Origin: Candidatus Bathyarchaeota archaeon
Lineage (GTDB): Archaea; Thermoproteota; Bathyarchaeia; Bathyarchaeales; Bathycorpusculaceae
DNA: 37,045 nucleotides
Assembly: GCA_963775895.1 (NCBI GenBank)
Contig: CAVZKL010000005.1
Span: 1 to 37,045, forward strand
Reading direction: 5' to 3'
In this document: positions 306-21,122 of the stretch, in pieces
How the letters are laid out: every line of letters begins with the position of its first letter
How positions within the stretch are numbered: position 1 is the stretch's first letter
Position numbers and translations under genes: made by a program
The notes under the pieces: generated by a model
Databases searched by the model: none
Told to the model about the DNA's origin: nothing
What the model saw: only the letters and a program-made list of their open reading frames with translations

Positions 306-2471
306 TCACGCTTTGAATCTTCGCAACAAGAAGGAGTTGCCGACAACGGTGATGTCACTGAGTATCATCGAAGCCGCGGCGGCTTCAGGTGGAATCAGAA
401 CGCCAAGAAAGCGATACGCCACGCCTGCGGCTAGCGGAATCATTATGATGTTGTAGAAGAACGCCCAGAACAGGTTCTGTCTGATTTTGCCCAGAGTGCT
501 TCTGCTGAGCTTTATGCTCGTCGCCACACTGCGCGGATCGTCCTTGAGCAGCACGATGTCCCCTGAATCGACTGCGATATCAGTGCCGCCTCCGATAGCA
601 ATGCCCACGTTTGCTTGTGTGATGGCAGGGGCATCATTTATGCCGTCGCCGACCATGGCGACAAACCTTCCCTCGCTCTGCAGCTTCTTTATTTCTTCAA
701 CTTTCTGGGCTGGGACAACCTCGGAGAGCACGTCGTTTATGCCCAATTGTTTGGCTATCGCTTCAGCGGTTCTCTTCGTGTCGCCGGTGAGCATGATGAC
801 TTTCAAACCCATCTCTTGCAGGCTGCTGACGGCTTCTTTGAGTGTTCCTTCGCGGTATCTGACACCGCGATGGCCCCCATGGCTTTGCCTTCGACGGCGA
901 GAATTAAAACGGTTTTCGCCTGGTTTTCAAGCGTCTCGATTTCGTTTTCTAAGGGGCCGATGGAGATTCTGTTGTTACTCATCAAAGCGCGATTTCCGAT
1001 CAAAACTTTCTTGGCTTTGACGACTGCGGTCACTCCGAAACCAGGCAGAGCCTCGAAAGATTCAGGATCCTCAACATGGAACTCCCTCGTTCTCAGCTTG
1101 TTTAACGATGGCTTGACCGATCGGGTGCTCAGACCATTTTTCTGCTACGGCGGCTGTCTCAAGAAGCTGCTTTCTGTTTTTGGCAATGACATCCGTGACT
1201 TCAAGTTTGCCCTTGGTTAGCGTTCCCGTCTTGTCAAAAACAACCGTGTCAAGATTCTTGATCACCTCGAGCGAGGCACTGTTCTTTATCAGGATTCCGT
1301 TTTCCGCTCCTTTTCCCACACCGATCATTATCGCAGCGGGCGTCGCGATTCCCAACGCACAAGGACACGAGATTGCTAACACGGCGACAGTTGTCGTCAG
1401 GGCGAGCGCTTGATCTTTGAAAACAAAAAACCATGTCGCGAATGTCAGTATAGAAATCGCTACAACCACGGGCACAAAAACGTTGACGACTTTGTCAGCA
1501 AGTCTCTGTATCGGTGCCTTGCTAGCCTGAACGTCGCGAGCGAGGCGCACTATCTGAGACAGAGTCGTTTCTAAGCCGATTTTCTCAGCTTGAAACTTCA
1601 CCGTTCCAGTCTTGTTGATGGTCCCACTGAAAAGCGTGTCTCCGACCGTCTTTTCTACTGGAACCGATTCGCCTGTGATCATGGATTCGTCGATGAACGT
1701 GTGTCCTTCGGTGACTGTGCCGTCAACAGGAATTCGGGCTCCCGGTCTCACGACGATCGTGTCGCCGACCTGAACCTCGTCAGCTGAGATTTCTTTCTCC
1801 TGTCCCTCTTGAATCACGATGGCTGTTTTGGGTTGAAGCGCCATGAGTTTCTTGATGGCGTCCCCCGTGCGCTCCACGGCCATATCCTCAAGAAGCATGC
1901 CCAACGTTATGGTGGTTATGACGATGGCGGCTGCTTCGAAATAGCCCATGCTTCCAGGGACAAAAAAAGTCACGTAGGCCGAATAAACGTAAGCAACTGA
2001 AGAACTGAGCGCGACCAGCACGTTCATGTCCGCGAAACGGTTTCTGATGGAGCTGTAAGCGCCTCGGTAAAAGTGCCAGCCTACGATAAACTGCACGGGC
2101 GTTGCCAATGCTAGAAGCACGTAGTTTTTGTCGGGAAACATCGTGAAAAAGGTGATGAAAACGATCGGGATAGTCAGTGCCAAACCGATTGAGAAGAGCA
2201 GGATTCTTTCCTTGACTTCCTTCTTTCGCTTCTCGCTTACGTCTTCAACTCTCTCTACAGCCTCGTACCCACCTCTCTTTATCGTTGCTTTTATCTTGTC
2301 TAGAGTGACCTTGTCCTCGTCAAACTTCACCAAGGCTTCTTTGCTGGCGAAGTTCACTCTGGCATCCACTATGCCGTCAAGTCTTTTCAGACCTGACTCG
2401 ATGCCCGTTGCGCAAGCAGCGCAGTGCATGCCCAGAATCTGAAGAACTATCTCTTTTTCTTTCACGACCAT
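306..2471 (-). CDS. copA: Cu(I)-translocating P1B-type ATPase, split by two frameshifts (~1080 and ~835)
   Basis: N-terminal GMHCAAC metal-binding domain, TGES, CPC, DKTGT and SEHP in 1071-2471. The N/P-domain continues in 803-1033. MVGDGINDAP and YN..IP are in 306-812. The three pieces join into one typical CopA. Confidence 0.92.
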
Positions 2472-6416: not shown

Positions 6417-6821
6417 TTGATTGAAACGATAGATCACGTCGGAATTGCAGTGAAAAACTTGGATGAAGCAATCGCTCTCTACCGAGACGTCTTGGGTTTC
6501 AGGCTTGAAGGAGTTTACACGCTGAATGAGCGCAAGATCAAACTGGCATCCTTCAGAGGCGGCAACGAAACCCACGTTGAGCTTGTACAACCCCTGAGCG
6601 ACGACAGCACGGTTGCAAAGTTTCTTGAAACTCGAGGCGAAGGTATCCACCACATCGCCGTGAAGGTCAAGGACGTCAAAGCCGTGCTTGGAGAGTACAA
6701 ACGGAAGGGTCTCGCCCTGATTGACGAAGAACCGAAACCAGGCGCTGGAGGTTCAAGAGTAGCTTTTGTTCATCCGAAGAGCACTCGCGGCGTCCTTCTG
6801 GAACTTGTCGAAAGACCATAA
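6417..6821 (+). CDS. mce: Methylmalonyl-CoA epimerase
   Basis: VOC fold with metal ligands IDHVGIAV, ELVQP, GEGIHHIA, FVHPKSTRGVLLELVE; consistent gene context. Confidence 0.93.
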   Translation: MIETIDHVGIAVKNLDEAIALYRDVLGFRLEGVYTLNERKIKLASFRGGNETHVELVQPLSDDSTVAKFLETRGEGIHHIAVKVKDVKAVLGEYKRKGLALIDEEPKPGAGGSRVAFVHPKSTRGVLLELVERP

Positions 6822-6892: not shown

Positions 6893-8458
6893 ATGGGCTC
6901 AAAAGAGTCGACGGTAGATGACAAAATCAAGCGCTTGAAAGAGTTAAACGAAGAGGCTAAGCTCGGCGGAGGAAAGAAACGGATCGATGAACAGCATAAA
7001 AAAGGCAAATTGACGGCTCGAGAACGCATCGAACTCTTGCTTGATCAAGGCAGCTTCAACGAACTGGACCGGTTCGTGGTTCACCAGTGCACGGACTTCG
7101 GCATGGCGGACAAGAAGACACTCGGCGATGGCGTCGTCACGGGTTACGGCACGATTGACGGTCGCTTGGTCTACGTGTTTTCCCAGGACTTCACGGTTTT
7201 CGGCGGCTCTCTAGGCGAAATGTTCGCGAAGAAAGTTTGCAAGATCATGGACCTTGCCGTGAAGGCAGGTGCGCCAGTAATAGGCTTGAACGACAGCGGC
7301 GGTGCGCGAATACAGGAAGGCGTAGCGAGCCTGGCAGGTTATGGAGACATCTTCTTCAGGAACGTCACAAGCTCGGGTGTGGTGCCTCAAATCTCAGCGG
7401 TCTTGGGACCGTGCGCGGGTGGAGCCGTGTATTCGCCGGCTCTTACTGATTTCATAATTATGGTGGACAAGACGAGTCACATGTTCATCACGGGCCCAGA
7501 CGTCGTCAAGACCGTTCTGGGACAGGAAGTTGATTTCGAGGAATTGGGCGGTGCGATGGTTCATGGCACGACGAGCGGTGTAATTCATTTCATAGCCAAG
7601 GACGAACAGAACTGCATGCAGATAATCAAGAAACTGCTGAGTTTCCTGCCCAGCAACTACCTAGAAGATCCACCTGTTGTCGAGACCGGTGACGACCCAA
7701 ACCGTACTGACCAGACTCTGGTAAAGATCTTGCCCGACGATCCTGACAAGCCCTACGACGTGAAGGAGGTCATCCACCGCATCGTTGACAAAGATGATTT
7801 CTTCGAGGTTCAACCTCTCTGGGCACAAAACATAGTAGTAGGTTTCGCCCGTTTGAACGGCAAAACTGTCGGAATCGTTGCCAACCAGCCTGCATATTAC
7901 TCAGGAGCCTTGGACATCAACAGCTCCATGAAAGCGGCAAGGTTCGTGCGTTTCTGTGACGCCTTCAACATTCCGATAGTCACTTTTGTCGACGTACCAG
8001 GTTTCCTCCCAGGCATTGAGCAAGAGCACGGCGGCATAATCAAACACGGCTCAAAACTTCTGTACGCTTACTGCGAAGCAACCGTGCCCAAAATCACCGT
8101 GATTTTGAGAAAAGACTACGGCGGAGCGTACGACGTTATGGGCTCTAAGCACAGCGGAGCTGACATAAACTACGCGTGGCCCACGGCTGAAATTGCAGTG
8201 ATGGGACCCCACGGAGCGATAAACATCATCTTCAGAAAAGAAATAGCCGAAGCAAAGGATCCGAAACAGAAACACAGCGAATTGGTCACTGAATACCGCC
8301 AAAAGTTTGCGAGCCCTTACATAGCGGCACAGAAGGGTTACATCGATGAAGTCATCGAGCCAGCTGAAACCCGTCCCAAACTCATAAGCGCCTTAGAAAG
8401 TTTGGCCACAAAACGTGAAATCAGACCTTCGAGAAAACATTCGAACCTCCCGTTGTAG
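6893..8458 (+). CDS. Methylmalonyl-/propionyl-CoA carboxyltransferase (PccB/MmdA/transcarboxylase 12S type)
   Basis: [49 protein letters not shown] and a C-terminal KHSNLPL; 521 aa. Confidence 0.93.
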
Positions 8459-8585: not shown

Positions 8586-10131
8586 TTGGCTTTGAAACAC
8601 GTCAAGATAACAGACACCACCTTCAGGGATGCACATCAGAGTCTGATCGCCACGAGAATGCGAACTGACACGATGCTTCCCATTGCAGAGAAGATGGATC
8701 AAGTTGGCTTTTTTTCGCTAGAAGCATGGGGAGGCGCCACATTCGACGTAGCGATACGCTACCTCGCAGAAGATCCATGGGAACGGATTCGCCAACTGAA
8801 AAAACACGTCAAGAACACACCGCTCCAGATGCTCCTGCGCGGTCAGAACGTCGTCGGTTACCGCAATTACCCTGACGATGTGGTTGAGAAGTTCATAGAG
8901 AAAGCCGCTGAGAACGGAATAGACATCTTCCGAGTCTTCGACGCTTTGAACGACGTAAGAAACATGGAAGTCGCCATAAAGACCGTGAAGAAAAACGGCA
9001 GACATGCTCAAGGCACGATCAGCTACACCATCAGCCCCTTTCACACTGTCGAGTATTTCGTGAAATTCGCCATGAAGCTGGCCGAGCTCGACTGCGATTC
9101 AATATGCGTAAAAGACATGGCTGGCATGCTGGCGCCACAGCCCGCGTTCGAGCTTATATCCGCTCTAAAAAAGAAAGTTGGCCTGCCCGTCCATCTGCAC
9201 AGCCACAGCACGAGCGGGATGGCCATGATGACTTACTTTCACGCCTGCGAAGCCGGTGTGGACATTTTGGACACTGCGTTCTCACCGTTGGCGTGGGGTA
9301 CGTCGCAGCCTCCTGTCGAGTCGGTCGTTGCGGCTTTGAAGGGAACGCCCTACGACACATGCTTGGACAGTGAATTGCTCAACGAAATCGCGCAGTACTT
9401 CCGTGAACTGCGTGAGAAGTATTACGACCCCTTGAGGTTGGTGGACCCGAAGTCCGAGCGAGTTGATCCGTCAATAATCGTGCATCAGATTCCAGGCGGT
9501 ATGTTTTCAAACCTGTTGGAACAGCTGAGGGAGCAGAAAGCGTCGGACAAGCTCGGTGAAGTGCTTGAAGAAGTGCCCAAAGTGAGAAAAGAACTGGGTT
9601 ATCCGCCTCTCGTCACACCGACCAGCCAGCTTGTGGGTATTCAAGCGGTTCTGAACGTCATCTCAGGAAAAAGGTACAGCATCGTGCCCAAGGAGATCAA
9701 GGACTACGTGAAAGGGTTGTACGGAAGACCACCCGCACCCATCGATGAGAAGATTAGGAAGAAGATCATAGGCGACGAGGAACCGATCACGTGTCGCCCC
9801 GCTGACTTGCTTGAGCCGATGCTTGACAAGATTCCAGACGATGTGAAGCCTTACATTGAATCCGATGAAGATCGACTCACTTACGTGCTGTTTCCACAGA
9901 CGGCACTGGAATTCTTCAAGAAGAGAAAGATCAACCGCCAAGATATCAACGCTGGTATTTCGCCTGAAAGACTTGCGGAACTTGAAGAAGCCGCAGCCCT
10001 TTCGATGGCAGTAGTGAACTACTTGCAGAATCAGTCATCCGTCAAGGCGCTCACCCTGTCGAAGAGGAAAGACAGAATCGTCTTACTGGGTCTTAGCGGC
10101 TCGTCAAAACCAAGTTGAACGTGGTGCCTGA
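8586..10131 (+). CDS. Pyruvate/oxaloacetate carboxyltransferase (PycB/OadA/transcarboxylase 5S type) with no biotinyl domain and a C-terminal docking tail
   Basis: DTTFRDAHQSL, EAWGGATFD, MLLRGQN, CVKDMAG, HLHSH, HQIPGGM and GYPPLVTPTSQ. The as-read stop is at 10118. Removing one A near 10068-10070 gives ...KRKTESSYWVLAARQNQVERGA* ending at 10131, 2 nt before the next ATG. Confidence 0.9.
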
Positions 10132-10133
10132 AC

Positions 10134-10688
10134 ATGCCAGAGTACGAGGTCTTCGTCGACGGAAAGAACAGAAAAGTGGAACTTACCAGAAACGCAGAAA
10201 ACTCCTTCACTGCCAAGATCGACGGCAAAGAGCACGCGCTCGGCATTGACACTGATTCTTTGAATGTTGAAAACCCTTTCACTGTGAGAATAGACAACAA
10301 ATCCTACCACATCGAACTGCCCAGAGCAGACAGGACAAGAGAATTTTCAGTGAAGGTGGATGAAGCCGTCTTCAAAGCTGAGATAAGAACTCCTACCAGA
10401 AAGAGCACGTTCACGACCTTTGAGCCCGCAACAACTGCAACGTCAAGAAGAGCGACTAGGAACAGGCAAGTCATGGAAGGAAGTGTTACAGCTCCCATGA
10501 CCGGCAAGGTGGTGCGGGTGAAAGTGAAAGAGGGAGAGCAGGTGAAGACGGGTCAAGTCCTGTGCGTCGTTGAGGCGATGAAGATGGAAAACGAAATCGT
10601 TGCACCTAAAACGGGCACGGTCAAGGAAGTATGCGTAGCAGAAGGTTCGTCAGTGAGCGAAGGCGAGCCTCTTGTCACGATCGGCTAG
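10134..10688 (+). CDS. Biotin carboxyl carrier protein with extended N-terminal beta-hairpin domain
   Basis: APMTGKV...[10 protein letters not shown] biotinylation motif and a Thr/Arg-rich linker. Confidence 0.93.
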
Positions 10689-12364
10689 AAAAGTGTCAGC
10701 GGCTTGTACTCGCCGAAGACTGCTCTGAGCGTGTCGCATATTTCACCCAACGTTGCGTATTCTTTCACGGCTTGAAGTATGAAGGGCATCAGACTTTCGT
10801 TTTCTTTTGCTGCTGCGTCGTGCAATTTTTCGAGGGCTTCTTTGGTCTTGGCTTGGTCTCTCTTCTTCTTTATCATGTTTAACTGATCGACAAGAGTCTT
10901 CTCCACTATTGGGTCCACCTTCAAGGTTTTGATCGGAGTCTTTTCTTCGCTGACGTAATCGTTTACGCCTACGATGACGTGTTTCTTTGCTTCGACCTCT
11001 CTCTGGAAACGGTAGGAGCTTTCGATTATCTCGCGCTGCATGAAGCCTTTCTCTATGGCGGCAACTGCTCCGCCCCTTTCGTCGATTTGTTCAATGTACT
11101 TGAGGGCTTTCTCCTCAATTTCGTTTGTTAAGTATTCAACGTAGTATGATCCGGCCATTGGGTCCACGCTGTCGATGGTACCGCTTTCGTAGGCTATGAT
11201 TTGCTGAGTTCTCAGGGCCACTGTTACGGCTTGTTCCGTTGGCAGGGCGTAGGCTTCATCGAAAGAGTTCGTGTGCAGAGATTGAGTTCCGCCGAGAACA
11301 GCCGATAGGGCCTGCAATGCCACGCGGACAATGTTGTTGTACGGTTGCTGAGCCGTGAGCGAGACTCCCGATGTTTGGGTGTGGAATCGCAGCATCTGCG
11401 AGTTGGGGTTCTTGGCTTTGAACCTGTCACGCATGATTTTGGCCCAGAGTCTGCGAGCAGCCCTGAACTTGCCGATCTCTTCGAAGAAGTTGTTGTGAGC
11501 TGCGAAGAAGAAGGACAGTCTGCCCGCGAACCTATCAACGTCGAGGCCACTGTCAATCGCTGCTTGCACGTAGGCAATCGCGTTTGCCAGAGTGAAGGCC
11601 ACTTCTTGCACCGCTGTTGAACCGGCTTCGCGTATGTGGTAGCCACTTATGCTTATCGTGTTCCACTGCGGCATGTTCTTGCTGCAGTAGGTGAAGACGT
11701 CTGTTATCATGCGCATAGAGGGTTTCGGCGGAAAAATGTACATGCCTCGGGCCACGTATTCCTTCAGAACATCGTTCTGAACAGTTCCGCCCAAACGAGA
11801 CTGATCGACGCCTTGCTTCTGTCCCACAGCAACGTACATGCTCAGTAGGACGTTTGCGGGAGCGTTAATCGTCATGGAAGTCGTGACTTTTTCAAGCGGA
11901 ATCCCGTCGAACAGGACTTCCATGTCCTTGAGAGTGCTTGCGCTGACCCCGACCTTTCCAACTTCGCCGAGAGCCAAGGGATGGTCGCAGTCGTATCCGA
12001 CCTGAGTGGGAAAATCGAAGGCCACGCTCAAACCGGTCTGCCCGTGTTCGAGCAGATACTTGAAACGTTTGTTGGTTTGTTCAGCGGTTCCGAAGCCGGC
12101 GTACTGACGCATCGTCCAAGGACGCGCGCGGTACATGGTGGGGTAGACGCCTCGTGTGAACGGGTATTCGCCCGGGAAACCGAGATGATTCAGGTAGTCA
12201 AAACCCGAGACTTCAACAGGAGTGTAAAGTCTCTCTACAGGGATGTACGAGCTGGTGGAAAACTCTCCCTTCTCGGGCAGCTTGTCGAAGCTTCTTGCAA
12301 CGGTGCCGGCTTCCCACTTCTGCTTCTGATCTCGTATCTCTCGCAGTTTTTGTTCGTCAAACAT
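10685..12364 (-). CDS. mcmA: Methylmalonyl-CoA mutase, substrate-binding (large) subunit, 559 aa
   Basis: The start is re-called at ATG12364 ([10 protein letters not shown]); the upstream 150 codons of the track ORF overlap another gene. Motifs [35 protein letters not shown] and [11 protein letters not shown]. The Tyr and Arg specificity residues are those of MCM, not isobutyryl-CoA mutase. No B12-binding DxHxxG domain. Confidence 0.92.
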
Positions 12365-12485
12365 GGTTGAAGTCGCCTGGAAACAAGACTGTTCTGGCAA
12401 AGATAAAAGAATTGTCAACCGACCAACAGGCGTGAAAAGAGTTGGTGTGCACTGCATCAGAAATGAACTGGCGTTCAATGAGAGC

Positions 12486-12500
12486 ATAAAAAAAGGAAGG
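12486..12500 (-). terminator. Pyrimidine/oligo-T terminator after the DUF996-like gene
   Basis: The - strand reads CCTTCCTTTTTTT about 17 nt after the stop at 12517. Confidence 0.5.
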
Positions 12501-12516
12501 ATGTAGAGTTTCGCTT

Positions 12517-13140
12517 TCACTGTTGAGTCGGGGGCGGCGCGGGCGTTTGCTGCGGAGGTTGTGAAGGTATCTGGAAGAAGGCGATCGCCAGTAGCAACAT
12601 AGCAATCCATATCAGTGCTAAACCGATAATGATTATCGTCAGAAAGGCGCCTATCAGGAACAGTAAGCCCGCCGTCGCGAACAAGTGGACAGTCGTTTTC
12701 TGAGAGAGTCCGTTCAAGGATCTTCTTAGGAAAAAGGCTGAGACCACGATGAACACGACGAACAACACGAAGCTCAGAAGAATCTGTGCCACGTACGGCG
12801 CTACCGTATCCCAAGTTACGTTCGTCATGATTTGCTGGGCATTGCTCAGATTGCTCAAATCGATACCCAAAGCTTTGAGCAGATTCAACGCTGCTACGAC
12901 AACTAGCACGGCTGTAATCACTCCGCCGATGATGGTGATCACGAGCGAGTAGAGCGCATTGTTGAATATGCGTGAGTCTTTGTAATAATCCGAAAATCCT
13001 TTCAACCCAATGAAGAGGAGTATTACGCCTATGAGGTCAATTATCCAACCGTAGATACCTGCAAAAAAAGGTACCAGAGTACCTACGACCAACAGTATGG
13101 CTCCGATTCCGCCCATGTTCTTGCTCGATTCAAATGTCAT
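12517..13140 (-). CDS. DUF996-like multi-pass membrane protein
   Basis: K..GGIGAILL start, [19 protein letters not shown] and [21 protein letters not shown] pattern, with a Pro/Gln tail. Confidence 0.75.
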
Positions 13141-14596: not shown

Positions 14597-16886
14597 TCAG
14601 AGTTTGAAAAAGCCCGATGCCACTGCCTGACCGAAGGATAAGCCACCGTCACCCGGGGGAACAGTCTCATGCACCAAGAACCGGATGTTGGCATCCTCAA
14701 CGATTCTCCGCATCTCGCCGGTCAGAAGTTCGTTGCATGCCACTCCACCCGTAAAACCGATCGCCTCAACCCTGTTTTCCTCTGCACTTTGCAACGCAAG
14801 CTTCGCCAACCCTTTGGCGAGGTAGATGTGTGCCGAATAAGCCAAGTCTCGTTTTCTGCACTTGGTTCTTTTCTCGAAAATCTCCTGCAGCAGGGGAGTC
14901 GTTTCAAGGGTGTTACCATTGATTATCGGTTCCAGTTTCGGAACATTTTTTCCTCCTGTTGCCGCTGACTCAAGTTTCATTGAAGGCTCGCCTTCGTAGG
15001 TGCGTTCGTGGCACACGCCGAGAATAGCTGACACAGCGTCGAGGACTCTTCCGCAGCTCGTGGTCTTCGTGACGTTGCCGCGGTTCCTGAGTTGTTGAAG
15101 GATTATCTCGATTTCTTTTTCTCCGTGGGGGAAGTGCCGCTTGTTTTCCTGGAGAAACTCTTCAACGTCCACTTTGCCGTAGAGTATTCCTGCAGCTACT
15201 CTTAATGGATAACGAGTTGCCAAGTCTCCGCCCACTAGTGGCTGTTCTTCAAGGTGGGCTAAACGTTTGAAGCCGCGGTTGTTCTTTGTTGCAGAGGAGG
15301 ATTTCTCCTCCCCAGGCTTCACCGTCCAATCCGTATCCGTAGCCGTCGCAGCATACGCCGATGATTTCGTTGACGCTGTGTTCTTCCATCAAGGCGGTGA
15401 CGTGGGCGTGGTGATGCTGGATTTGCTGAAGTTGCCAGTTGTTTTCCTCGGCCAGTTGGTGCGCCAGCGCCGTCGTGGTGAATTTCGGATGCAGGTCACA
15501 CGCGACCGTGTCTATTCGGCTGTTCGTCAGGCCGACTAAATGTTTTGAGGCTGTTTCGAGGAAATCTCTTGTTTCTATGTTTTCTACGTCTCCTATGTGC
15601 TGTGAGATGAAGGCTTTGTCGCCGTTCAGTATGCACGCAGTGTTGTTCAGTTCTCCGCCTAGGGCGAGAATGCAGTGTTTTGCGTGATGTTTGAGCAGTA
15701 CAGGAGCTGGCGCGTAGCCTCTTGATCGTCTGATGAAAACGGTGTGTTCGCCGTGAGTGCGGAGTACCGAGTCGTCGCATCTGTGGGCTATTCGACGGTC
15801 ATGGAACAGGAAGTAATCAACGGTGCTGCCGAGGGTTTTGAGAGCTTCATCGTTGTCGTTTATTATTGGCTGGTTCGGTGGGTTGGCGCTCGTCATCACG
15901 AACGAGGCGTCGGTGACCTTGTCGAAGAGCATGTAATGCAGGCCTGTGTAGGGCAGCATGACGCCGATGTTGTGCAGTAGCGGTGCCACGAGAGCCGACA
16001 GGTAGTAATCACTCTTCTTGTTCAGCAAGACAATTGGGCGGGTGAAGGAGGTTAGTAGTTTTTCCTCTTCTTCGCTCACTTCGGCGAATGTTCTGGTTGC
16101 CTCCAAGCTTCGGGCCATTATCGCGAAGGGTTTTTGACTTCGGTGTTTGACTTCTCGGAGTTTGGCTAGCGGCTTGTCCTTGGTCGTTGATGTTGCAACG
16201 TGGAAACCGCCGTAGCCTTTTATTGCCAGCGTGCTGCCTTCCGACAGGAGTCGGCCTGCTTCGCGGACGGGGTCTTTGTGCCGTACCGCTTCTCCGTTGG
16301 CTGTTGTGAGGTACACTTTTGGCCCGCACTTGGGACAGGCTACTGTTTGGGCGTGAAATCTTCTGTTGAGTGGGTCTCTGTACTCTTTCAAACAGTAGCC
16401 GCACATGGGAAATTCGCGCATGGTCGTGTTTTCACGATCGTAGGGCAGTTTTTCGATTATCGTGAATCGTGGGCCACAGTTTGTGCAGGTGATGAAGAAG
16501 TAGTCGAATCTTGGGTCTTCGGGGTTTCGAAGTTCTCTCAGACACTCGTCGCATATCGCCACGTCTGGCGGTATGACCGAGCCTGAGAGTTCGGTTTCGC
16601 TTGAACTCTTTTCTACGGTGAAACTTCGATATTGGTTTTTTCCTTCGAGCTTCGAAGTGATTACGTCGTAGATTTGGGCAAGAGGCGGCTTCTTTCCTCG
16701 AAGATCTTTCATGAAGTCTTGAATGTCCTGTTCTTTTCCTTCAAGAAGAATTTCTACTCCGGCATCGCCTCGGTTCTTGACGTATCCGTTCAGTCGGTGC
16801 TGGACTGCGGTGCGGTAGATGAAGGGACGGAAGCCCACCCCTTGAACTATGCCGGTAACCTTGACTTTTAGCCGCACTGCAGCCAT
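14597..16886 (-). CDS. hypF: Carbamoyltransferase HypF, split by one frameshift (~15285)
   Basis: GIVQGVGFRPF acylphosphatase domain, CxxC zinc fingers, QHHHAH and DGYGYG..WGGE. The second frame supplies TTSCGRVLDA, GGVACN and PPGDGGLSFGQA. Confidence 0.93.
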
Positions 16887-19532: not shown

Positions 19533-19586
19533 ATGCTTTATAAACGGCTTCATTGTCTACGTAGTAAACGTGGAAATCTGAGGTGG
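19533..19586 (+). promoter_or_regulatory. TATA box and SD for tes
   Basis: TTTATAAA at 19537-19544; GAGGTGG at 19580-19586 before ATG19593. Confidence 0.55.
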
Positions 19587-19592
19587 AAGGCT

Positions 19593-21122
19593 ATGTTGAA
19601 GACTCAGGTTCAAGAAAAGTTTGAGACTCACTCGACCAGTCTCTGCCCCGAATGCTTGCAGAGAATTCCTATGAGGATTTACGAGGAAGACGGCGTTATC
19701 TACTTGGAGAAGACTTGTCCGGAGCATGGAAAGTTTGAGGACATATACTGGGGAGACGCCGAACTTTTCAGATGGTTCTACGACAACTGGTACAATGCCA
19801 AGTACTGGGGCAACGGCCTGGAGAAACCGCATTCCAAGACCGTCAAGGGTTGCCCCTTCGATTGTGGCGTGTGTCCACAGCACAAGACCCCCACGATTCT
19901 GGGGATCATCGATGTCACGAACAGGTGCAACATGGCTTGCCCAGTCTGTTTTGCCTACGTGGGAGCAACCAACTACGTTTACGAACCCACGTACGACCAG
20001 ATCGTTGAAATGATCAGAGTATTACGGTCCAACAGTCCGTGGGCGTGCAACGCCCTGCAGTTCAGCGGGGGAGAACCCACCTTAAGGAACGATCTGCCTG
20101 ATCTGATAAAGGAAGCGACGAAGGCGGGGATAACTCATGTGGAAGTCAACACCAACGGTATCCGCGTCTCTGAAGACCTCGACTATTTCAAGAAACTGCT
20201 TGACGCCGGTCTAAGCACGCTTTACCTTCAGTTCGACGGTTTGAGAGAAGAGATTTACAAGAAAACCCGCGCGCGCGGAGACATGATTCCGATCAAGATG
20301 AAGGTTCTGGAAAACGCAAGAAAACTCGGGTTGCATTCCATCGTTCTCGTGGTCACCTACGCTAAAGGAGTGAACGACAAGGACATCGGGGAGATCATCG
20401 ATTTTGCCGTGAAGAATCATGATGTCGTGCGCTGCGTTAACATTCAGCCGGTCTCTATGGCGGGAAAGGCGCGGAAAGAGGAAATGCGCAAGATGAGAAT
20501 AACGATTCCTGACACGATCAACGAGATTGAGAAACAGACGAACGGTGCGGTCGGACGTTTCGACTGGCGCCCCGTCAATTGGCCCGTTCCGATTTCAAAG
20601 GGCATGGGCCAGGTTAAGGGCAGGGTTTATCCAGAGTTTACCATGCATCCCATGTGCGGTGCAGCGACTTTTCTGGTCGTCGACAAGGATGGTTCTTACA
20701 AGCCGATCATGAACTACGTGGACGTTGACAAGTTTGCGAACGTGTTCTGGGACGTATACTATACGGGTGCCAAGGGCAAGAAGACAATGGCCAAGATAAA
20801 GATGGTGAAGCTCCTGCCCATGGCGAACAACGACTTCGTGCGAAGCTTGATCACTGGCGTCGTTACAAAAGGAAGCTACAAAGCGCTCGGGGAACTGATG
20901 CGTCGAATCGTCATGGTCGGCATAATGCACTTTCAGGACGTCTGGAACATTGACCTTGACAGGGTTCAGAAGTGCGCGATCCACTACGTCACACCTGACG
21001 GAAAGGTCCGATGCTTCTGCACCTACAATAGCATCCACAGGCCCGAAGTTGAGAAGCAATTCGCCGTGTCAATTCCAGAGTGGACGAAGAAGACTGGAAA
21101 GAAAATCAACGAACCGTTCTGA
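19593..21122 (+). CDS. tes: Tetraether lipid synthase (GDGT/macrocyclic archaeol synthase, MJ0619-type radical SAM)
   Basis: Rubredoxin-like CPEC...CPEH; auxiliary cluster GCPFDCGVCPQH; radical SAM CNMACPVC; SGGEPT; C-terminal cluster ligands HPMCG...MHFQD...KCAIHY...FCTYN. Confidence 0.88.
   Translation: MLKTQVQEKFETHSTSLCPECLQRIPMRIYEEDGVIYLEKTCPEHGKFEDIYWGDAELFRWFYDNWYNAKYWGNGLEKPHSKTVKGCPFDCGVCPQHKTPTILGIIDVTNRCNMACPVCFAYVGATNYVYEPTYDQIVEMIRVLRSNSPWACNALQFSGGEPTLRNDLPDLIKEATKAGITHVEVNTNGIRVSEDLDYFKKLLDAGLSTLYLQFDGLREEIYKKTRARGDMIPIKMKVLENARKLGLHSIVLVVTYAKGVNDKDIGEIIDFAVKNHDVVRCVNIQPVSMAGKARKEEMRKMRITIPDTINEIEKQTNGAVGRFDWRPVNWPVPISKGMGQVKGRVYPEFTMHPMCGAATFLVVDKDGSYKPIMNYVDVDKFANVFWDVYYTGAKGKKTMAKIKMVKLLPMANNDFVRSLITGVVTKGSYKALGELMRRIVMVGIMHFQDVWNIDLDRVQKCAIHYVTPDGKVRCFCTYNSIHRPEVEKQFAVSIPEWTKKTGKKINEPF

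Follow-up and report, generated by a model that had tools for sequence, protein, structure and literature searches.

In the BT domain of the propionyl-CoA (PCC), 3-methylcrotonyl-CoA (MCC), geranyl-CoA (GCC), and acetyl-CoA (ACC) carboxylases (Pfam PCC_BT and ACCA_BT; structures 7ybu, 3n6r, 3u9s, and 5csa), strand 1 of an eight-stranded up-down barrel comes after a helix and a hook, in this order, and the barrel is followed by a linker and the biotin carboxyl carrier protein (BCCP), all in one chain, the alpha subunit that also bears the biotin carboxylase. The hook of GCC and MCC has a C-terminal strand that starts with a conserved Trp buried in the beta subunit (PMC4673880). Assembly in trans is on record for the pyruvate carboxylase of Methylobacillus flagellatus (MfPC), in which the C-terminal Ala-rich helix of the biotin carboxylase subunit fills the barrel of the carboxyltransferase (CT)-BCCP subunits and in which deletion of the helix or an A465R change abolishes the holoenzyme; the same report terms the architecture of archaeal multi-subunit biotin enzymes unclear (PMC5059739). 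In oxaloacetate decarboxylase (OAD), the tail helix of the gamma subunit binds the association domain of alpha (Balsera 2011, as cited in PMC7274780). Here, we analyze a 37,045-nt stretch of the Candidatus Bathyarchaeota contig CAVZKL010000005.1 (the window, meaning the whole of this DNA, to which all coordinates refer; its genome is designated G000), in which a 12S-type acyl-CoA carboxyltransferase, a 5S-type carboxyltransferase, and a small biotin carrier are encoded together, between an epimerase gene and a convergent mutase gene. The Propionibacterium transcarboxylase (12S/5S/1.3S; 1rqb) is composed of the same three kinds of subunit, and the enzyme of the window presumably catalyzes the same reaction. 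To our knowledge, the linkage of transcarboxylase 5S and 12S through a small carrier has been described only biochemically and for one bacterial enzyme.

We consider it likely that this cluster encodes a biotin-dependent methylmalonyl-CoA:pyruvate transcarboxylase, a putative activity deduced from gene content, and that a BT-like domain is divided between two of its genes. The C-terminal ~55 residues of the 5S would contribute an Ala-rich helix and, after it, a hook in which S-x-W-x4-R is invariant, and the N-terminal ~89 residues of the carrier would contribute an eight-stranded barrel made of four hairpin repeats. The 5S helix would fill the carrier barrel in trans, as in the two-subunit pyruvate carboxylase, and the hook, placed directly ahead of strand 1 as in PCC, MCC, and GCC, would set its Trp onto the 12S; both the 5S dimer and the swinging biotinyl domain would thereby be fixed to the 12S core. 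The features concerned are the following:

6893-8458, plus strand: 12S-type acyl-CoA carboxyltransferase (Pfam Carboxyl_trans, 690.8 bits)
8586-10118, plus strand: 5S-type open reading frame (ORF) as read, 510 residues
8586-9980, plus strand: catalytic fold of the 5S-type (pyruvate/oxaloacetate) carboxyltransferase, residues 1-465 (Pfam HMGL-like, then PYC_OADA ending at residue 465; NCBIfam NF006761, 790.7 bits)
9963-10025, plus strand: candidate tail helix, PERLAELEEAAALSMAVVNYL, in which small hydrophobic residues are abundant (sequence and alignment A1)
10026-10071, plus strand: linker from helix to hook, QNQSSVKALTLSKRK, with K39 and A40 conserved
10064-10070, plus strand: site of the one extra base that shifts the 5S frame (strain contigs, gap in the DNA alignment, split profile match)
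10072-10130, plus strand: hook segment in the +1 frame, TESSYWVLAARQNQVERGA plus stop, with Trp at 10087-10089 and Arg at 10102-10104
10134-10688, plus strand: biotin carrier, 184 residues
10134-10400, plus strand: N-terminal domain (N-domain) of the carrier, residues 1-89, four hairpin repeats, modelled as a barrel (repeat statistic, AlphaFold2, Foldseek, VIA, weak PCC_BT match)
10401-10472, plus strand: flexible linker of the carrier, residues 90-113 (residues 89-113 have pLDDT values under 50)
10473-10688, plus strand: biotinyl domain with E-A-M-K-M (Pfam Biotin_lipoyl, 84.9 bits, residues 118-183)
10581-10583, plus strand: biotin lysine, K150 of the carrier

Compared with the one-chain BT domains, the gene border here falls between hook and strand 1, the donor of helix and hook is a pyruvate-type carboxyltransferase, and the sequence similarity is below threshold for the barrel and nil for the tail. 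MfPC (5ks8) shares the assembly in trans, with a C-terminal Ala-rich helix in one subunit and strands ahead of the BCCP in another. However, its helix belongs to the biotin carboxylase, ends the protein, and carries no hook, whereas the helix considered here lies on the carboxyltransferase and is followed by a hook; and its barrel consists of two four-stranded sheets from two beta subunits (alpha1:beta2), whereas here all eight strands would reside in one carrier. OAD is similar in that a partner subunit has a tail with a helix, which binds a small beta domain between carboxyltransferase and BCCP, and an OAD_gamma protein (P0014, see below) shares both helix and SSSW...GRQ tail with the 5S of the window. 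It differs in being a membrane pump with a beta subunit (OAD_beta, PF03977, not found in G000 or in 5 same-genus genomes) and in having a short association domain fused to the carboxyltransferase. The 1.3S carrier of Propionibacterium is much shorter than the present one and, as far as we know, has no four-hairpin barrel.

As read, the 5S frame runs past its Pfam domains and closes with ISPERLAELEEAAALSMAVVNYLQNQSSVKALTLSKRKDRIVLLGLSGSSKPS and a stop (an ending also given as LSKRKDRIVLLGLSGSSKPS and a stop), whereas the frame one base ahead leads to KTESSYWVLAARQNQVERGA and a stop at 10128-10130, 3 bases ahead of the carrier ATG (10134). We searched 41 related genomes (the relatives) with the 5S; 39 gave a match, and in the 21 with a clear orthologue the protein matches break off at query residues 491-498 of 510. 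A profile of the tail matches the window twice, in abutting stretches and different frames (9936-10073 as profile positions 3-48, E 2.5e-17; 10060-10128 as positions 44-66, E 8.7e-7), and a DNA alignment with 5 same-genus orthologues contains one gap column, that is, one surplus base in the window. Strains with 95-99% identity from three other studies likewise have contigs that lack one base at 10064-10066, namely the one contig of run X2, the one contig of run X3, and two contigs of run X1 (depth 44.9 of 76.8); the site of the shift lies outside the coverage of run X5. Because these near-identical contigs omit one base at 10064-10066, the surplus base is placed at the GG/AAA stretch 10064-10070. 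The first-pass annotation had called for a one-base correction near 10069, a check of 10060-10075, and a corrected 5S ending just before the next ATG, and had held that the ORF track hides the module. Orthologue tails, the split profile match, the DNA alignment, and the strain contigs of X1, X2, and X3 agree in supporting this correction, the position of the stop agrees with the predicted end, and the frameshift does conceal the diagnostic end of the 5S.

For the frameshift in the window, an error of the sequence or of its assembly is the most probable cause, the other candidate being a lesion confined to this strain. Since copA and hypF in the window are also split by single frame changes, an error-prone assembly is the simplest reading. 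If the frameshift were real in this strain, the 5S gene would have lost its hook by a fresh lesion, and the module would be defective here and intact in relatives. The window as given does carry the extra base, run X1 omits it in only part of its depth, and the best run contains at most 0.56 of the sampled words of the window, such that the source sample may be outside the runs. However, the tails are intact in all 20 + 40 orthologues described below, near-identical contigs from three studies lack the base, and the splitting of two further genes within the same 37 kb resembles an error-prone assembly, which leaves a real lesion rather unlikely in our estimation. A programmed +1 ribosomal frameshift, for which one could invoke the hook frame being open and conserved directly past the shift, is hardly credible, as no orthologue requires a shift and the base is simply absent from near-identical strains. 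Regarding the two other split genes, hypF (14597-16886, minus strand) lies in two overlapping ORFs, 15249-16886 covering positions 1-521 of TIGR00143 and 14597-15322 covering positions 519-739, with the frame change near 15250-15320. In the copper P-type ATPase gene copA (306-2471, minus strand), the ORF 1071-2471 accounts for no more than the first ~317 of the 542 positions in the profile, and the remainder, including the GDGINDAP motif, is in another frame downstream of ~1071, the break being near 812-1071.

The C-termini of 20 5S orthologues were aligned (alignment A1), leaving out L016 and L017, whose tails were not picked by the pattern, and L022, whose contig ends at residue 393. All 20 tails end in S-x-W-V-L-A-(A/G)-R-Q...GA, with L18, A22, A23, A40, W53, and R58 invariant and E17, E19, S25, A27, and S51 conserved at 90% or more. 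The S-x-W-x4-R motif, whose conservation in homologues had been predicted, is thus carried by 20/20 aligned orthologues, with invariant W and R and with S in at least 90%, and homologues ending as the uncorrected window does, with no conserved Trp, were not encountered among them. A scan with the single narrow pattern ELE[EK][VAI]AA[LVI]S[VA] yielded 41 further loci, partly from the same genomes as the relatives and all from Bathyarchaeia/Bathyarchaeota metagenome-assembled genomes, which gives a lower bound on the distribution. They contain 40 tail ORFs, with W-x4-R in 40/40 and S/T-x-W in 38; in 39 of the 40, a carrier gene begins at a distance of -34 to +13 bases relative to the tail stop, and the contig of the 40th ends there. 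A word-based homologue search with the tail region returned close relatives only (20 proteins, 67-98% identity). The closed same-genus genome G001 has two identical 5S tail regions ~6 kb apart (L067 and L068, at G001:C1:2097202-2098680 and 2103186-2104664), with one 12S match reported. In addition, a 140-residue library protein (P0010) joins an unrelated N-terminal part to a 5S-type tail and may be a chimeric or frameshifted call.

The carrier gene, in turn, begins with a domain of repeated hairpins. When carrier residues 1-90 were searched without bias for the top-scoring set of four non-overlapping 14-mers, the result was identical to the four hairpins named in the first-pass annotation, with a summed BLOSUM62 score of 84 (shuffles: 28.3 +/- 6.3, maximum 52), which was reached by 0/300 shuffles. 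AlphaFold2, run with 20 orthologues, predicts strands at residues 3-8, 11-21, 24-29, 32-38, 49-53, 56-61, 71-75, and 78-85, then a disordered linker (89-113) and the biotinyl domain; modelled alone, the N-domain has 8 strands and a pLDDT of 80.1. In a Foldseek search with the N-domain alone, ranks 1-28 were all BT-bearing carboxylases, the first different fold being at rank 29, and the top match was human PCC alpha (7ybu_A: E 1.2e-4, TMq 0.77, rmsd 1.6 A over 87 columns). VIA-align against 48,161 chains placed the BT domain of yeast ACC on top (5csa_B: Z 7.2, rmsd 2.7, 80 aligned; next 4.7), and the entire carrier matches the BT and BCCP domains of PCC alpha over 183-184 columns (E 1e-12). At E up to 1, Pfam PCC_BT is matched by 18 of 20 N-domains (best 1.5e-4) and ACCA_BT by 6 of 20. 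Residues 3-89 of the window carrier correspond to positions 33-116 of the 126 in the PCC_BT profile; by our reading, the unmatched first 32 positions are the helix and hook, which are absent from the carrier chain. At the biotin site, E147-M151 is invariant in the carrier alignment A2. A profile of the N-domain gave chance-level matches only against solved chains (E 0.13 or above), and Shiga toxin B subunits among its sequence matches were discarded as hairpin-motif noise. Taken as a whole, the models support the identification of the carrier N-domain as a BT-type eight-stranded barrel directly upstream of the BCCP linker, as had been proposed.

The carrier chain itself contains no helix, for which the 5S tail in trans is the candidate, and relatives of this tail occur on other proteins. 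Judged by profile comparison, the 5S tail is clearly homologous to the C-terminal tails of biotin carboxylases: hhalign of the 20 5S tails (A1) against 9 biotin carboxylase tails (A5) gave a probability of 98.5% and an E-value of 1.6e-15 over 56 columns. Biotin carboxylase (Biotin_carb_C, PF02785) is present in 10 of the 41 relatives, in open frames of 499-542 residues whose ends resemble EE-AAAI-AVL ... AVIP-R ... S-x-W-K-L-A-G-R, and the 5S tail helix aligns with the EE-AAAI-AVL stretch. Among 1.84 billion representatives, the 5S tail profile had 14 matches in all, mostly gene fragments, which say little on distribution, full-length 5S proteins probably sitting under tail-less cluster heads. 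These matches include the biotin carboxylase C-terminal fragments P0011-P0013, in which the tail closes the Biotin_carb_C domain (E 2.5e-7 to 1.1e-4), and the OAD_gamma protein P0014 (E 7.1e-4; PF04277 at 1.2e-11), made of a membrane helix and the tail ...AITAAIAMYL...SSSWVLSGRQ. The first-pass annotation had placed tails of this type on biotin carboxylases and on delta/epsilon subunits; the biotin carboxylases are confirmed and OAD gamma can be added, whereas the match of the biotin carboxylase tail to Pfam ACC_epsilon is weak (E 0.024, 15.7 bits, below the cut-off of 25).

Most of these tailed biotin carboxylases are themselves coupled to carriers. A carrier with the same hairpin N-domain lies directly 3' of the biotin carboxylase in 7 of the 10 relatives (G016, G018, G024, G029, G030, G031, and G039), with stop and start coupled. 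In G018, full-length comparison of the two carriers gives 31% identity (E 9e-25). By domain order, the biotin carboxylase tail plus its carrier is collinear with PCC alpha (biotin carboxylase, BT helix, hook, barrel, BCCP) cut after the hook, and the 5S tail plus carrier is the same arrangement with a different catalytic body. Thus, the two kinds of pair share a homologous tail, a paralogous carrier architecture, and the stop/start coupling, and differ in that one catalytic body is an ATP-grasp biotin carboxylase and the other a TIM-barrel carboxyltransferase. Because the same tail-plus-barrel pair occurs on biotin carboxylase with a paralogous carrier, 5S and biotin carboxylase can therefore be regarded as alternative occupants of one kind of socket. 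Both tails occur with one carrier in G025, G026, and G037 and with two carriers in G018 and G030, and a single 12S was found in G018, G030, and G025, each of which has biotin carboxylase as well as 5S. Because there is a single 12S, and two tails with one carrier in three relatives, both kinds of tail appear to serve one socket and one 12S. The earlier proposal that the 5S took over the docking slot of biotin carboxylase is partly supported: the tails are homologous, and the three relatives with two tails and one carrier fit a shared slot, while a course of evolution from carboxylase to transcarboxylase would be conjecture. In two of the relatives (L037 in G030:C37 and L041 in G018:C1), a larger cluster comprises a tailed biotin carboxylase, carrier 1, 1-2 short genes, 12S, 5S, and carrier 2, of which the genus of the window has the second half only. 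Three other loci (L038, L039, and L040, in G025, G037, and G026, respectively) have biotin carboxylase tails with no adjoining carrier and with an extra C-terminal extension that bears a second aromatic motif, for example, W-K-W or F-R-W.

The identity of the enzyme was approached through gene content. A search for biotin carboxylase (PF02785) found none in the 11 genomes of the genus, namely G000 and 10 others, one of which is a closed single-contig genome with 97% completeness. G000 has one 12S match and one biotin carrier; a second Biotin_lipoyl match was rejected as a biotin carrier, being the lipoyl domain of an E2 acyltransferase. Since no biotin carboxylase or membrane decarboxylase subunit was detected in the genus, the only biotin enzyme that these genes would allow it to build is 12S + 5S + carrier, a transcarboxylase. 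Such an identity fits the flanking genes:

6417-6821, plus strand: methylmalonyl-CoA epimerase, with which the cluster opens (NCBIfam TIGR03081, 151.4 bits, cut-off 114.95; Pfam Glyoxalase_4)
10685-12814, minus strand: methylmalonyl-CoA mutase large subunit, convergent neighbour (NCBIfam TIGR00641, 818.2 bits, residues 184-703)

Family models place the two carboxyltransferases less sharply. The 12S scores 859.8 with TIGR01117 mmdA, under the cut-off of 998.8, and the best NCBIfam model for the 5S is named "pyruvate carboxylase subunit B"; the closest solved relatives of the 5S are 5ks8_C (E 1.4e-160), 2nx9, and 1rqb (E 1.4e-133). That name, together with the tailed biotin carboxylase of 10 of the 41 relatives, could point to a split pyruvate carboxylase beta subunit, in which 5S and carrier serve a biotin carboxylase encoded elsewhere and the 12S is separate. 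We regard this as very improbable, given that biotin carboxylase was not found in any of the 11 genomes of the genus, including the closed one, and that the genes are placed between 12S/epimerase and mutase.

The pairing of the 5S helix with the carrier barrel is weakly suggested by a complex model. For the tail and N-domain of G006, modelled with their own alignments, the score was 0.59 versus 0.01 for the best of 3 controls; the partner has a pLDDT of 56, and at least 97% of contacts agree between runs. In the benchmark of this procedure, 116 of 157 solved complexes and 2 of 215 mismatched pairs attained the mark, and passes at 0.60 or below comprised 18 of the 157 solved complexes and both passing mismatches. 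The contact of the hook Trp with the 12S is proposed by analogy with PCC, MCC, and GCC. An alternative would be that the tail-barrel pair only keeps the carrier on the 5S, replacing the covalent CT-BCCP link of PycB/OadA, with no docking on the 12S and with the conserved Trp capping or stabilizing the barrel. Such a tether is suggested by the NCBIfam PycB model (591 positions), which is covered by the 5S (2-486) and then by the carrier (459-589) as if PycB had been cut in two, and by MfPC and OAD, whose helix/sheet module joins subunits with no hook on an acyl-CoA carboxyltransferase. However, the top fold matches of the N-domain are BT domains of PCC, MCC, and ACC, all of them docking modules for the acyl-CoA carboxyltransferase, whereas the sheet of the two-subunit pyruvate carboxylase (5ks8_C) covers only residues 22-60 (Z 4.0). 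Moreover, the biotin carboxylase tails have this hook motif too, and the enzyme with which they work must be the single 12S; the invariant Trp lies just ahead of strand 1, like the hook Trp of GCC and MCC. We therefore judge a mere tether unlikely and favor docking of the split BT-like module on the 12S.

Several observations weigh against a split BT-like domain in a transcarboxylase. The tail matches no Pfam family at E up to 1, PCC_BT included, and its profile gave nothing meaningful against solved chains (best E 0.35, an unrelated membrane protein), such that its reading as BT helix plus hook rests on position and collinearity, not on similarity. None of the N-domains reaches the PCC_BT gathering score of 23.5, the window carrier being at 20.2-20.3 bits. 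The pass of the complex model is weak and its contacts are unlisted, and with like complexes already solved (5ks8, PCC) the pass may reflect resemblance to them. Regarding enzyme identity, the 5S falls short of the NCBIfam transcarboxylase 5S equivalog NF008984 (562.8 vs. 827) and reaches NF008985, "oxaloacetate decarboxylase subunit alpha" (OadA; 734 vs. 718), and G000 is 88.8% complete, which makes absences in G000 alone weak. Finally, the alignment with the Propionibacterium 5S extends to the point where the tail begins, and beyond it the aligned part of that protein shows neither an Ala-rich helix nor a Trp motif; because of this difference, helix-hook docking is not general for transcarboxylases.

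The BT fold and the principle of its assembly in trans are already known, with biotin carboxylase as the helix donor, from MfPC (PMC5059739). A literature search, with subscription journals outside its scope, found no keto-acid carboxyltransferase that donates helix and hook, and no split BT domain in a transcarboxylase or in an archaeal carboxylase. The locus thus offers a testable answer to the question of archaeal biotin-enzyme architecture, namely a BT domain cut between hook and barrel with the plug on a carboxyltransferase. The conserved tail would also mark an enzyme class that annotation models name pyruvate carboxylase subunit B or oxaloacetate decarboxylase alpha. The split BT-like module and its relatedness to the biotin carboxylase tails have firm grounds, and the shared tail suggests a route by which a carboxylase may become a transcarboxylase through the exchange of one subunit. 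In this respect, the relatives with a homologous plug on biotin carboxylase and with one or two carriers provide a natural comparison, which could show how carboxylases, decarboxylases, and transcarboxylases swap modules. More tentatively, and with more doubt than confidence on our part, the barrel may act as a socket of general use, into which the helix-hook tail fits as a portable plug carried by biotin carboxylase, 5S, and OAD-gamma-like anchors, with enzyme classes interconverting by tail transfer. A single 12S core might then accept arms of biotin carboxylase, arms of 5S, or a mixture of the two, and propionyl-CoA carboxylase, transcarboxylase, and pyruvate carboxylase activities could arise from one mixed particle, a view that agrees with the relatives in which two tails occur beside a single carrier and a single 12S. 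Loss of biotin carboxylase, as in the genus of the window, would leave a pure transcarboxylase, and biotin enzyme classes would interconvert via transfer of a tail rather than by a change of catalytic domain.

Some further observations concern neighbouring genes. About 180 N-terminal residues of the mutase ORF lie outside the family match; since this match begins only at residue 184, the true start is probably internal. The model matched corresponds to the N-terminal (large) domain only, and the B12-binding part must accordingly lie elsewhere. Farther downstream, the window encodes a tetraether lipid synthase, Tes, a radical SAM protein (19533-21122, plus strand; NF045702, 600.3 bits, cut-off 450), and because of this gene the organism can be recognized as an archaeon from the window itself.

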